From Giardia intestinalis (lineage: Eukaryota), in assembly GCA_000002435.2 (NCBI GenBank), contig CM018792.1: a stretch of DNA of 64,000 bases, one strand, 5' to 3'. The notes below the pieces were generated by a model. The model was not told the DNA's origin, searched no databases, and saw only the letters and a program-made list of their open reading frames with translations. Position numbers and translations under genes: made by a program. Within the stretch, counting starts at the first letter, position 1; each line of letters begins with the position of its first letter. Shown here one piece after another: positions 9,789 through 33,731 of the stretch.

Positions 9789-10196
9789 ATGTCATTAACA
9801 CAGCGCCTTCTGCCCTCTGACCATAAGTCTGTTGATGCGTCTCTTCAGGACCAGCAGATGATCAACACCTTTGCCCGGTTGCACATGGTTTATGTGGAGT
9901 TGGCAGAGCAGCGCAAGGTTCTCAAGAAGCGTCTCGATGACATAGAGAGCGCATCAGTTGCTCTTTTAGAGCTTGATGATACGGAGGTGAAGCCGATGCT
10001 CGCTATCGGGGCGGCTTTCTTCCCAAACGACTCCATGGACATTGATAACTCGCTGGAGGCTCTAAAGGCAACAGTCTCGCAAGAATACGAAGTCGTCTCT
10101 AATCGCTGTAGCAAGATAGAGGCCAAGCTCAATCAACTACGTGATGTGCTCCAACAGAAATTCAAGGGTTCGATAAACCTAGACTACGAAACCTAG
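9789..10196 (+). CDS. Prefoldin-like coiled-coil subunit (beta-type), 135 aa
   Basis: Two predicted coiled-coil helices flank a short beta-hairpin region (PMLAIGAAFFPNDSMDID) in the prefoldin beta arrangement. The size fits the family. Assignment rests on architecture only. Confidence 0.45.
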   Translation: MSLTQRLLPSDHKSVDASLQDQQMINTFARLHMVYVELAEQRKVLKKRLDDIESASVALLELDDTEVKPMLAIGAAFFPNDSMDIDNSLEALKATVSQEYEVVSNRCSKIEAKLNQLRDVLQQKFKGSINLDYET

Positions 10197-10317
10197 GGGC
10201 ATTTGCGTTAGTAAATTAGCAGTCCTAGCTCTCATTGCGGTCATAATCGCTGTGCACATGTGATTCGGCAGGAGTTATAGAAAGGAGCGGCACCTAAATT
10301 CAAAACCTGAACCAAAA

Positions 10318-13300
10318 ATGAAACTTCCATATCAGCTCATTTCATGGTGTTTACGACAAGGAATTGCTACTCAATTACGATCTCCCCGACAGGATCTACA
10401 CAATGGATATCTTATTGCTGAACTTTTGAGCAAGTTGTACCCAGAGCATTTCAAGATAGTGCAATTTGATAATCAGAGTTCTGCGACCGTGACATCAAAG
10501 AATTGGAATAGAATCGCTGCAGTTGCTCCCAAGATAAAACTTTCCCTCACTGATACAGAACTTGAGGCATGCAAAGCTGGAGACGAACAGGCTCTTGTTT
10601 CTATATTGAAACGTGTTCACACCTTGCACACGGGGAAAGATCTGGCAGAGAGCAAGCAATCGACAAGACCAGTATCAACAAATGAGGATAGGTCGCTGAC
10701 TAAGGGTCCTGTCTCTAAGCTTGGGGTGGCATTGAACGCCAACCATCAAAATCAGACCATCACTCAGGACCCTCTTAAATTTCTTGTAACGCGGAACCTC
10801 GATAACATACATCATACATCTGCTCATGAACAAACGACCTTTGCCACGGCAACGAACCTTTCAACCATCTTGGTCCATGGTGACGCAGATGGACTGAATG
10901 CTGCCAGCTCCAGACCAAACAACTCTATGCTGTCTATGCGACCATCCACGGCTGCCGTTGATAACGATGATATGGCCTTTAGGATGAATCCTGGTGCTAC
11001 AGGTACATCCAATGAAAATAAGCTGCCGAAGAATGTCCCCAAGTTTGTGCGAGGCGTATATATCTCGACACGAAGACTCCTCATGGAGTTGTCGACAGCC
11101 TGCAAGAATGCAATTACATCTCTTCCAGAACTTCAGAACATGCTTGAGATGATTGATCCACGGGTGGACACCATCTATCCATTTATTAATATATGTCTGC
11201 GCGTTCCTTCAGAAAATGCAGTCGAGCTTTTCGACGCCTTGATCCTTGAGCTGAAGCCGTTTACAACTCTCTTGGTTGATCAAATTTCCGCCAATCCATT
11301 TCTCTTTTGGGAACTCCTGAAGTTGCTTGTCTTATCCTCCATCAACTTGCGGAGGGTAACTGGCCCAAAAGCGGAATTTCCACGGCAGGCGACTGAATAC
11401 CTGTTGCACCTGATTGCAGAGCTAGGCCGGTCTTCTCCGTCATCTCTTGCATTGATCTTCAGTCACATAATTAAAACTAGATTGATGCACGTGATCGATT
11501 TGCGTGAGTTCGGACTTCACAACTTTGTGGATCTTTATATGGCATTTTTGCCGATCATGGAGCATGAATCGGCGTTAGACATAATAACAAATATTATACA
11601 GCTTGCTGACAATAATTTTAGAGAAAAGTCTGATGGCCAATATATGATCAATCCCAGCAAGTTGCGGCTTGCTGTTTTAACCTCTATAGTTTCTGTCATC
11701 TCCGGCTACTTCATCAAGTTCTCCCATGATCCACGCTTTATGCTATATGGAATGTTTGTGTTACCATTGAAGCAACATATTGGAGAAAGTAAAGATGACC
11801 GCAGCAAGTCCAGCAGCCCCGTTAGGTTTTCTGAGCGTGATAACATGCATGCAAGCACAGGAACTGCCCAGTCCTGCAGCGAGTATAGTGTTTCCACTGG
11901 ATATGGGGTCATGGTTCAAGGAGATAACGAAGAAGAGATGCTCTCTGGCAGAGAGCTTTTGGAGCAAATGTTATTAGATATTCTCTATGTGATTATCCGC
12001 GTTCTAGTGGGGTCTGAGAATTTATTGATAGATGAAAGAGTCATCGTTCTGGACCTTCTGTTCAGGTGCTGTGCAGCAAATCCCCAGGAGCTAATGCCCC
12101 ATGCAGAACCCACTATTCTTGTTATCTTTGAGTCCATTGTTAATCGCACAAAGCCATGTATTACGCTAGTCTCTGATAGTGACGATGTAGAAGGGAACAC
12201 ACGGTCTTCGCACCAGCCTTATAGAGTAGCCAACGTTGCTCCAAACTATGGAAGCACTAAACTGACATCTCTCTGCGCTGGGACTGACCTACAGACAATC
12301 CCAGAAGAGGGTAGTAAGAAAACCAGCCTATCTGGTGGTAATCCTGCTACCAAGACCCCAAGAAGAGCGTCAATTGCTTCGTTATCTGTTCCAGAGACTC
12401 ACGCTATAGTAGATGGTCTTCACTCCTCCACGCACACAGCCTCGCTCGGGCCGTCAGTTAGCGTAGGCGCCAGTCAAATAAGTATAGTACCAAGTGACCG
12501 CCACAGTCCAATTGCTGTGATGAACACGGTGGCATCGGAACGGAGTGCAACGGAAACATCGCCCGAGCATAGTGTGGAGGGCATGGTAAAGGTTGAGACG
12601 CATGGCATAAATTGTCAATATGATAATATACCCTACCTACATTATGAAATGCTCCTTTCTCTAGTGCTCATCCTCCGAAGATATGCATCTCTGTGTATCA
12701 AGGATCATTATGACACGCCCTTAGTCCTCGTCTCCTATGACTTGGAAAGAGCCATAATGGACTTTCATGAGCGTCTCTCTCCTGTTTCTCTCCTCATTGG
12801 GATCCTGAGCTCAACCGGTAGAAACATGGACATGATGAAGCACATTACTCCCTTCACAATACAGACCATTCTCGACGATCCGGAAAAGGCTGAGGCGTAC
12901 AATGAGACATTGCACGTCCTTAGGTGTATTATGAACGTTCTCATACAGTCTCCTGATATGACGGAGATTGTCTTTGCCGCCCTCGACGGCAAGGGAGACT
13001 TTGAGCAATCTATAGTTAGCTATCCACCCCATTGCTATCTAAAGATCGTACAGGCTCTATATCCCGGTAGTGAGCTTATGGAGATAGTACCTGCGTTGCT
13101 ATGTGTCGCCGTAACGTATTCAAAGGAATTCCTTGCCAACAAGAGTATCGATCCAAACAATTACTTCATAGCCATCGCACGTCTCATAGAATTCATCCCG
13201 GACATAAGCTGCTTCGTCTATGACCACCTCAGTGACGAGCTCTTCACCCAGATTACAGACCCTCGAGTAAGTGAGACAGCAAGCTCTCTGTTGACAGACC

Positions 13301-13793: not shown

Positions 13794-13982
13794 CTATTGA
13801 CCTCCCTGCTCCCTTTTGCGAGCATCTGCTGCAGCTTGCTTTTGCCGCATGATCTCTGCATTGCGCTCCTTTGTCTCAGCTAGGTCAACGCCGGTGTGAG
13901 CACGGCTACGGCCGCCCTCATTTCGCTCCTTCCTTTTTCTTGCTCGTTCACGATCAACATCGCGCTGGTTACCCCGTGTCAT
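13794..13982 (-). CDS. Small EDRK-rich factor (SERF/4F5 family) micro-protein, ~62 aa
   Basis: A minus-strand ORF encodes MTRGNQRDVDRERARKRK......KERNAEIMRQKQAA. This matches the 4F5/SERF signature MTRGNQRE.AR...KK...(D/E)IMQQKQ. The family-typical start MTRGNQ is the second in-frame ATG (13982); the track's first ATG is 13991. Confidence 0.55.
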   Translation of the reverse strand: MTRGNQRDVDRERARKRKERNEGGRSRAHTGVDLAETKERNAEIMRQKQAAADARKREQGGQ

Positions 13983-31198: not shown

Positions 31199-31651
31199 AT
31201 GGCCAGGAGGGTCTTCTTTGCTATCGAGGGCGTTGTGAGCCTTGGGGGCGCCCACGTGCTCACCCAGGTGGACACTGGTGCTGTCACAAGCTCTCTGAAT
31301 GCTCGGAACGTGTTTGTCGCCAGGAAGAGCACGGGATCCATGCCTCTATGCGTCAGCTTTACAATGATATCCCGCTTCGATGGCAAGGAAAGGGAATACG
31401 AATTCTTCGATGTCCCAGGTCGGTACTATAAGCAAAATGAGGTTATAGTTGTAATTCCTGCGGTGCTGTGTGATCTGACACCGGTCCCCTACGAAATCCA
31501 ACTATACACTAAACTTCGGGACCGCGCTTCTTCTGTGTATGATCTCAGCATAGGACTAGATGTGTTTAGCCAATTACAAACCCAGTATAAGGTCAGGCCT
31601 TTTCTTCAAGTCACCAATTCAACTGGTCAGATTAACGTCTCAGGGCATTAA
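31199..31651 (+). CDS. Hypothetical 150-aa protein with a retropepsin-like (A2/DDI1-type aspartic protease) signature
   Basis: AHVLTQVDTGAVTSSL near the N-terminus matches the retropepsin active-site pattern (hydrophobic-hydrophobic-DTGA-hydroxy). A later IGLDVFSQL stretch resembles the ILG.DFL flap-proximal motif. The size fits a single retropepsin domain. The ATG sits 1 nt after the cathepsin B AGTAAAT signal. Confidence 0.4.
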   Translation: MARRVFFAIEGVVSLGGAHVLTQVDTGAVTSSLNARNVFVARKSTGSMPLCVSFTMISRFDGKEREYEFFDVPGRYYKQNEVIVVIPAVLCDLTPVPYEIQLYTKLRDRASSVYDLSIGLDVFSQLQTQYKVRPFLQVTNSTGQINVSGH

Positions 31652-32182: not shown

Positions 32183-33731
32183 ATGGTTGAGCATTAATGT
32201 CTTTATACTTCTGGTTGGCCTTGCGCTCCATCTGGCGACAGAGGAGTGCACACCCGTCTCTGGTGATCAGCCCGACGCTTGCAAGGCCTGTAGCGCCGTC
32301 ATCAACGGCAAGAAGTACTGCTCGCAGTGCAACAGCGGTGGGTCTCAATCTGCCCCGACGGACGGAGTGTGCTTACCAGACAACGCTGTGTGTAATGCAA
32401 AAGCAGAAGGAAAGTGCACCATGTGCACGGGAAGCTCCTTCATGTACAAGGGCGGATGCTATGTAACAACCAAGGCGCCTGGCAATGCAGCGTGTACACA
32501 AGCAGCTGCTGGAGTGTGCACACAAGCCGCGCAAGGATACTTCCTGCCACCCGATGCTGATAGAGATAATGCACACCAATCGGTTATACCATGTGGAGAT
32601 GTTGAAGAAGTGTTGGCTGGAAACAGCCACAAGTACAAGGGCGTGCCGCACTGCACTCGGTGTGACACGCCTGACGCAGCAACCGATGCTAACGCCAAGG
32701 CTGCCACGTGCACGGCATGTGAGGACGGGTACTTTGTAGATAGCAGTAAAGGGTGCACTGCCTGTGATAGTAGTTGTAAAACGTGTGAGGCCACAGGAGA
32801 TACTAAGTGCAAGTCGTGTAAGGATGGCTACTTCCTGGCCGCAGCAGATAATAATCCAGGCAAGTGCATATCATGTGGAGATGTTCAAGGCTCAAGTGGC
32901 TGGAAGGGGGTCGCTGGATGCGCCAAGTGCAACAAACCAGCTAATGCAAACACCCCTGCCACATGCACTGAGTGCCAGGAAGATAAGTATCTGAAGACAG
33001 GTGAGACATCCAGCTGTGTCAGTGTAGAGGAGTGTAAGGATGGATTCTTCCCCACGACTGATAAACAAGGCAAGAAGGTGTGTGCTAAGTGCAGCGATAC
33101 TGCCAATGGTGGCATAGAGGGCTATGCAAAGTGCTCTCTCAAGGCAGCGTCTGCAAGAGCAGGTCCAATAGTTACGTGCTCTGAGTGCACCACAAACAAC
33201 CTGAGCCCCCTGAAGGACGCGTGTCTAACAGTCTGCCCTGCCGGGATGCATGCCAACAGCAAGGTGTGCACCCCCTGCCACGAGTCGTGCGCCGGCTGCC
33301 AGACCGATGACAAGGAGACTTCCTGTACGGCCTGCTACCCCGGATTTATACTCGTACGTGCTGGGGCTACCGATAAGGGCACGTGCGTTAAGGAGTGTAC
33401 AGGAGCAGCTGGAGCTGGTTGTGAAAGCAACATGTGCAATGCCAAGATAGCAGGGTCCAATTACTGCTCCAAGTGCATTACGGGGCAGGCACCCATCAAC
33501 GGTATTTGTACATCCGTAACAAGGTCCGCGAGAGATGCAGTCGGTTGTGCTCCGAGTAATGGAAAATGCACAGCGTGTACAGGAGACTATTTCCTCCAGT
33601 TTGGTGGATGCTATGAAAAGACGCAGTTCCCGGGAAAGATGGTATGTGCAGATGTAGACTCACAAAGAAAGTGTAATAGTTGCTTAAAGTTTGTGATGTA
33701 CATTTTGACGTTGTTGCGGAGCTGGAAGTAG
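32183..33731 (+). pseudogene. VSP pseudogene: start codon followed by a 1-nt insertion, and a 3' truncation that removes the TM/CRGKA tail
   Basis: ATGgTTGAGCATTAATGTC gives M-V-E-H-stop. Deleting the single g restores MLSINVFILLVGLALHLA, a textbook VSP signal peptide, in frame with 514 aa of CXXC-rich VSP body (FMYKGGCY, KTC, GGCYEKTQFPGK). The body ends abruptly (..CNSCLKFVMYILTLLRSWK*) about 170 aa short of where paralogues place the TM helix and CRGKA, and runs into unrelated AT-richer sequence. Confidence 0.75.

Follow-up and report, generated by a model that had tools for sequence, protein, structure and literature searches.

The 64,000-nucleotide stretch of Giardia intestinalis DNA analyzed here (contig CM018792.1), referred to as the window in the following, contains on its plus strand an uninterrupted open reading frame (ORF) at positions 31199–31651, which starts with ATG, comprises 150 codons and ends with TAA. 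An in-frame TAA (31193–31195) is located one codon 5′ of the ATG, and the ORF therefore has no 5′ extension. The encoded protein of 150 amino acids (aa) is a residue-for-residue match to the G. intestinalis WB protein GL50803_7620 (XP_001704583.1), which is annotated as “hypothetical protein”; no mention of GL50803_7620, or of a link of Giardia to RimB, RloA or DUF785, was found in the literature searched. The base composition of the gene is host-like, with a GC content of 0.494 and a GC content at third codon positions (GC3) of 0.543, compared to 0.485 for the window. Upstream lies a gene for a cathepsin B-type cysteine protease (30276–31172, plus strand; Pfam Peptidase_C1, E 4.9e-61), and its stop codon is separated from the ATG of the ORF by an intergenic spacer of only 26 nt (31173–31198, plus strand). 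Within the protein, the segment AHVLTQVDTGAVTSSL contains D25-T26-G27-A28 (codons 31271–31282); this is the predicted catalytic motif, whose Asp corresponds to D31 of RimB and which matches the DTG of RloA. The segment SIGLDVF further downstream contains I118-G119-L120-D121 (codons 31550–31561, with G119-L120-D121 at 31553–31561). An earlier sequence-only reading had placed a DTGA motif at the canonical retropepsin position and had pointed to the later IGLD segment, and both are indeed present. It had, however, interpreted the ORF as an A2-like or DDI1 domain, whereas sequence and structure lead to the family PF05618. We consider it likely that this complete coding sequence is a functional Giardia gene for a divergent single-domain RimB-like (PF05618) retropepsin-fold aspartic peptidase, a member of an otherwise bacterial family.

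The family PF05618 is listed in Pfam under the name “Zn_protease,” renamed RimB-like and formerly DUF785, and it was biochemically characterized in 2025 (PMC11957791; PMC12239564); the suggestion that the domain belongs to something not catalogued does therefore not hold. RimB is a homodimeric aspartic endopeptidase that strips Glu residues from polyglutamylated RpsF, and the mutation D31E in its DTG motif abolishes activity (PMC11957791). RimB is described as bifunctional and also stimulates the synthesis of poly-glutamate by RimK (PMC11957791). In crystals, RloA and RloA2 form dimers of C2 symmetry whose interface contains the DTG, followed by an Ala, beneath flexible flaps, and cleavage of polyglutamate (polyE) was reported (PMC12239564). 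In an AlphaFold2 (AF2) complex model of RloA(Pa), polyE contacts K46, R114 and R137, which are reported to be conserved in RimB; moreover, the RloA proteins have a signal peptide and share a conserved disulfide, and their genes form part of an rloABC operon (PMC12239564).

Compared as a single sequence, the window protein gives matches around the DTGA that were used as leads only and not taken as evidence. They consistently point to the same family and comprise PF05618 (E 0.049, 14 bits; gathering score 27), the NCBIfam families of retropepsin-like RloA3, RloA2 and RloA (E 0.002–0.09, sub-threshold) and a sub-threshold match to the PDB entry 9g58. Further PDB matches to VP10, ribosomal L1P and diaminopimelate epimerase (E 0.16–0.7) were rejected as chance matches. 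No Pfam family other than PF05618 is common to all six scanned sequences of G. duodenalis lineages, and two orthologues of the G. muris type match PF05618 as well. The first of these, GMRT_12476, reaches 19.5 bits (E 9e-4), with residues 18–119 aligned to positions 17–121 of the 138 profile positions. The second, P0036, passes the Pfam gathering cut-off with 32.5 vs. 27 bits (E 9e-8; residues 14–118, profile positions 13–120 of 138), and the PF05618 call was already contained in the precomputed Pfam data of the protein collection. P0036 in turn matches the Giardia profile with an E of 6e-45 and is embedded in a compact eukaryotic gene neighborhood.

The family relationship was further analyzed by profile–profile comparison with hhalign, for which an alignment containing only Giardia sequences (eight sequences) was compared to the excised domains of 114 bacterial PF05618 proteins; these proteins were recruited via one Vibrionaceae-like seed (P0037) and represent a taxonomically biased set. 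The Giardia alignment matched the bacterial set with a probability of 98.2% and an E of 6.2e-14 over 104 columns (Giardia residues 16–127 to bacterial 15–132). The match persisted with the G. duodenalis sequences only (96.8%, E 2.3e-10) and with the window protein alone (94.9%, E 4.4e-8), while the controls, consisting of 20 column shuffles and one reversed alignment, gave probabilities of at most 2.9% and an E of at least 0.016. A hidden Markov model built from Giardia sequences only and searched against all PDB sequences retrieved as the top three matches 9g58 (RloA, 1.8e-4), 2pma (Lpg0085, 9.2e-4, covering the full domain) and 9g59 (RloA2, 9.5e-3). By these profile comparisons GL50803_7620 is a divergent member of the RimB-like/PF05618 family, to which RimB, RloA and Lpg0085 belong.

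A structure model is in agreement with this assignment. AF2, applied to an alignment of 122 sequences (8 Giardia and 114 bacterial), yielded a model with a predicted local distance difference test score (pLDDT) of 80.3 and a predicted template modeling score (pTM) of 0.75, composed of approximately eleven β-strands and one C-terminal helix. In a Foldseek search with this model against the PDB, the six best-ranked chains belong to RloA2, Lpg0085 (DUF785) and RloA (E 5e-6 to 3e-4, TM score up to 0.74), followed by the proteases of the feline and human immunodeficiency viruses (FIV, HIV) with an E of about 0.02–0.1 and then by Ddi1 RVP domains with an E of 0.16–0.7. The predicted fold is thus a retropepsin (clan AA) half-barrel which is closest to Lpg0085/RloA. 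Profile–profile comparison and structure model therefore agree with the earlier expectation of a free-standing single domain with a retropepsin half-barrel. The fold starts at approximately residue 5, and E10 and V12 coincide with the conserved N-terminal strand. This leaves no room for a signal peptide, and in this respect the protein is RimB-like rather than RloA-like.

Five residues, D25, G27, S31, R109 and G119, do not vary among the 122 aligned sequences, and T26 and A28 are shared by at least 97% of them. The D25-T-G-A is in register with the DTGA of 9g58, 9g59 and 2pma in the alignment and is followed by the conserved TS-S-L segment of the family. Together with the purifying selection on the ORF described below, this invariance speaks against a chance occurrence of the motifs. 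R109 (codon 31523–31525), which belongs to the “DR” motif within the C-terminal pattern L-x-D-R ... h-h-G-R of the family, aligns to R117 of chain 9g58_A, 89 residues past the catalytic Asp; by this spacing, which is the same as in RloA(Pa) K46/R137, it corresponds to R137 of RloA(Pa). The IGLD segment with the invariant G119 is aligned with the C-terminal hydrophobic-hydrophobic-Gly motif of the family (LLGR in bacteria) and is probably the counterpart of the GRN/GLD motif of retropepsins. The basic positions of the family are only partly preserved. R75 and R109 are retained, the correspondence of R75 to RloA(Pa) R114 being uncertain. The position equivalent to K46, located at −2 from the Asp, is basic in 100% of the bacterial set and Lys in all three PDB proteins, whereas it is Gln (Q23) in every Giardia sequence. 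Furthermore, R81 is replaced by Glu in Giardia, and position 120, which is Arg in 99% of the bacterial set (the Arg of “LLGR”), is Leu, Met or Thr in Giardia.

Orthologues are present in all sampled Giardia lineages. Within the G. duodenalis complex these are assemblage A2, P15 (assemblage E), GS (assemblage B) and two more divergent G. duodenalis-type lineages, with identities of 97–67%. The G. muris orthologue GMRT_12476 (34% identity, BLASTP E 8e-24), which carries the UniRef name “Retroviral aspartyl protease,” and P0036 form a G. muris-type pair that is 30–34% identical to the window protein. The G. intestinalis entries are still “hypothetical,” whereas the G. muris orthologue thus already carries an aspartyl protease label in automated resources. 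The ratio of non-synonymous to synonymous substitution rates (dN/dS; Nei–Gojobori) amounts to 0.07–0.16 among the G. duodenalis lineages and to 0.13 for the pair of muris-type sequences, the synonymous distances (dS) in the same comparisons ranging from 0.6 to above 2, and seven independent lineages have kept an intact reading frame. Judged from these substitution patterns, the RimB-like ORF is a real gene with strong purifying selection acting on its frame.

The surroundings of the gene are in part conserved beyond the G. duodenalis assemblages. In a locus of the G. muris type (L001, on a contig from SRR30592944) the RimB-like gene is flanked by a WD40 gene upstream and by a Kelch gene downstream, and 11 of the 18 genes of this locus have homologues in the window between 3.8 and 31.6 kb; the shared genes include UQ_con, RSN1, WD40, SERF, two Tctex genes, a kinase/EGF-rich pair, a 98-aa ORF and the RimB-like gene itself. 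This synteny identifies the two loci as orthologous chromosomal regions, and the gene descended vertically from the common Giardia ancestor. The adjacency to cathepsin B is kept in the G. duodenalis assemblages and is absent from the G. muris-type loci. Synteny between this part of the window and L001 (1–18015) is extensive but rearranged, and small homologues of unannotated size map in the window to 9801–10187, 13815–13982, 21586–22340 and 22497–22790. In L001, the 3′ end of the RimB-like gene (10001–10456, plus strand) overlaps by 6 nt with the 3′ end of a convergent Kelch-repeat gene (10451–11443, minus strand), which is a further example of extreme gene packing.

Promoters and 5′ untranslated regions are very short in Giardia. 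The spacer behind the cathepsin B stop codon ends with ...AGTAAATC-ATG and contains, together with an AT-rich stretch immediately in front of the ATG, the heptamer AGTAAAT (31191–31197), which fits the Giardia poly(A) consensus AGTRAAY and is located one base before the ATG, exactly as had been noted from the sequence. With 26 matches vs. 32.7 expected, AGTRAAY shows no enrichment in the window, and what makes this copy significant is consequently where it is placed and that other assemblages have kept it. Exactly 26 nt also separate the end of the Peptidase_C1 gene from the ATG of the orthologue in three divergent assemblage contigs (spacers at L004 1695–1720, L006 614–639 and L007 674–699), and in a fourth contig of the assemblage B type (L002, approximately 95–119) a near-identical spacer of 25 nt follows the 3′ end of an upstream reading frame. 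The identity of the spacers among the G. duodenalis assemblages is 85–96% (pattern GTGAATCCATTT.A.AGTAAATC), while flanking synonymous sites differ at 65–68%. As the spacer is conserved while the synonymous sites are near saturation, selection seems to act on the spacer itself. This conservation suggests overlapping 3′-end and initiator signals, and the 26-nt spacer probably joins the poly(A) signal of the cathepsin B gene with an AT-rich initiator of the RimB-like gene. The latter would accordingly be expressed from its own very short initiator overlapping the poly(A) signal of its neighbor; the sequence-only reading had considered read-through or a very compact promoter for its expression.

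Among the characterized enzymes, RimB (Pseudomonas fluorescens PFLU_0262; NF052261) resembles the Giardia protein in being a single domain of approximately 150 aa without signal peptide, with an N-terminal DTGA, a C-terminal DR...hhG motif (h, hydrophobic) and a retropepsin fold. It differs in that the Giardia protein scores 12–22 bits against a RimB equivalog cut-off of 200, is encoded without an adjacent rimK-type ATP-grasp gene in a eukaryotic host, and has Gln instead of the K/R found two residues ahead of the Asp, with two more conserved Arg positions replaced. A signal peptide as in RloA, RloA2 and RloA3 of Pseudomonas (9g58, 9g59) is absent from the Giardia protein, and compared with RloA and Legionella Lpg0085 (2pma) its predicted flap region is shorter. 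With the retroviral retropepsins (MEROPS A2; HIV-1 and FIV protease) it shares the clan AA half-barrel and the D-T-G-A signature, and homodimeric catalysis is expected. It is similar to the RVP domain of Ddi1/DDI2 (MEROPS A28) as a eukaryotic cellular protein of retropepsin fold with a C-terminal motif that recalls the GLD type; moreover, the dimer platform of the RimB-like family is described as Ddi1-like.

By analogy to RimB and RloA, the D25 residues of two subunits would pair in a homodimer to form the catalytic dyad under flexible flaps. The protein would most likely act as an endopeptidase in the cytosol, a location suggested by a fold that starts too close to the N-terminus to accommodate a signal peptide. 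Whereas RimB and RloA cut polyglutamate tails, the substrate of the Giardia protein probably differs from these, as three conserved basic positions are replaced, one of them by an acidic residue. A more far-reaching proposal would be that a bacterial RimB-type retropepsin was recruited in Giardia to trim polyglutamate-like tails added by TTLL-type ATP-grasp ligases, for which tubulin and other cytoskeletal or 14-3-3-type substrates may be candidate targets. This proposal is compatible with the kept catalytic core and the two kept basic positions; with three basic positions lost, we regard it as rather doubtful. If true, it would establish a eukaryotic analogue of the RimK/RimB writer–eraser pair, with an aspartic protease in the place where other eukaryotes use metallocarboxypeptidases, and a parasite-specific protease without host counterpart.

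Several points weigh against the assignment as a RimB-like peptidase acquired from bacteria. The window protein alone remains below the Pfam cut-off (14 vs. 27 bits), so that its family membership rests on transitive and profile–profile evidence. The scores against the NCBIfam equivalogs of RimB and RloA1–3 (NF052261–NF052264) are 12–27 bits with cut-offs of 200–280, and the Giardia protein is thus not an orthologue of any characterized enzyme. An AF2 model computed from a six-sequence alignment of Giardia sequences only reached a pLDDT of 40 and was discarded; as the alignment underlying the model used here is dominated by bacterial PF05618 sequences, the fold match corroborates the sequence homology rather than being independent of it. 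In addition, the three conserved basic positions are lost, and no ATP-grasp domain of the RimK/RloC type was detected among the 22 large ORFs scanned in the window, although an operon-type RimK/RloC linkage is not expected in a eukaryote. Concerning the origin, direction and timing of a transfer are deduced solely from the known bacterial distribution and from the lack of other eukaryotic matches in one search, and since this search missed the bacterial homologues as well, the absence from other eukaryotes is weak evidence.

An alternative in which the RimB-like fold has lost catalysis and been retained for binding or regulation, comparable to the cleavage-independent stimulation of RimK by RimB, appears unlikely. 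Such a role would be in line with the bifunctionality described for RimB (PMC11957791), with the loss of several substrate-contacting basic residues in Giardia and with the fact that neither partner nor substrate is known. However, D-T-G-A, S31, R109 and G119 are kept across lineages with saturated synonymous sites, as expected if catalysis is retained. The earlier suggestion that a retroelement protease (MEROPS A2) of an uncatalogued long terminal repeat (LTR) element was domesticated or has decayed is very improbable: no RVP or RVP_2 Pfam match was obtained at E<=10, the single further clan-AA match is that of gag-asp_proteas in one of six members (E 0.058), there are no LTRs, repeats, or reverse transcriptase or integrase ORFs nearby, and PF05618 is far closer.

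A Giardia DDI1 orthologue that has been reduced to its RVP domain (MEROPS A28) and acts in ubiquitin-dependent proteolysis is equally hard to credit; no match to the DDI1 family (Asp_protease, PF09668) was obtained in Pfam at E<=10. One might also consider a chance ORF or an annotation artefact in the 3′ region of the cathepsin B gene in which the DTGA arose fortuitously, as the ORF encodes 150 aa only, is annotated as “hypothetical,” has no literature and begins 26 nt from the upstream stop codon. We attribute practically no weight to this explanation in view of the dN/dS of 0.07–0.16 at a dS of 0.6 to above 2, the frame that is intact in seven independent lineages, the conserved synteny and the full-domain homology to a characterized family. 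Taken together, a functional, divergent RimB-like aspartic peptidase explains the locus best.

Regarding its origin, the ancestor of the gene was most likely acquired from bacteria before the split of G. muris and G. duodenalis. For the majority of the sequence matches of the family, the phyla listed are all bacterial, with 58% from Proteobacteria, 20% from Bacteroidota and 7% from Actinomycetota (PMC12239564). An exhaustive single-sequence (phmmer) search, which also missed the bacterial homologues, revealed no homologues in other eukaryotes, and no relatives of the Giardia type were found with Giardia-specific motif patterns in 185k prokaryotic genomes or in JGI metagenomes. These three observations, the bacterial distribution of the family, the lack of other eukaryotic members in the phmmer search and the lack of a prokaryotic variant of the Giardia type, argue for a bacterial origin. 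The phmmer search also returned long multi-stretch matches with E-values down to 2e-17 (P0027 and P0029–P0033), which were rejected. P0027 and P0030 are translations of tandem repeats, and P0029 and P0031–P0033 are archaeal-type PKD-repeat proteins matching “PLTVQFTDLSTG”; their scores are inflated because many weak repeated matches of “PLTVQFTDLSTG” vs. “VLTQVDTGAVTS” add up. Multi-stretch matches to repetitive proteins inflate significance.

Further observations concern other genes of the window. The cathepsin B gene has a GC3 of 0.80, compared to 0.42–0.58 in 12 other measured genes of the window, a strong codon bias such as commonly accompanies high expression; beside it, the GC3 of the RimB-like gene (0.54) is ordinary. 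Downstream of the RimB-like gene, a VSP-family ORF (32187–33731, plus strand; Pfam VSP E 4e-51) covers positions 1–244 of the 397 profile positions only. It opens with TTG instead of ATG at an N-terminus resembling a signal peptide, and it ends with KFVMYILTLLRSWK rather than with CRGKA, the usual C-terminal ending of VSPs; this ORF is probably a truncated or pseudogenized VSP. A full-length VSP is encoded at 12–1973 on the plus strand. At the 3′ end of the window, six VSP-family ORFs of the ORF list are arranged head-to-tail on the minus strand within 55257–63851 (55257–56735, 56748–58631, 58644–59651, 59893–60552, 60565–62358 and 62436–63851), in several cases with gaps of approximately 12 nt. 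For two of these ORFs, the mechanically generated list gives GTG as the start codon, so that their true starts may lie elsewhere or the ORFs may not be intact.

The analysis overturns no principle and is a useful re-annotation, which gives a concrete identity to the hypothetical protein GL50803_7620 and extends the RimB/RloA family, described as bacterial, into a eukaryote. Strong purifying selection has maintained the gene from before the split of G. muris and G. duodenalis, and the gene adds a probable bacterium-to-Giardia transfer as well as a candidate aspartic protease to the protease repertoire of this parasite. As the subfamily has no homologue in the mammalian host, the protein could be of interest as a target for drugs or diagnostics. 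Finally, for the family as a whole, the altered basic residues of the Giardia proteins represent a natural experiment on substrate specificity.
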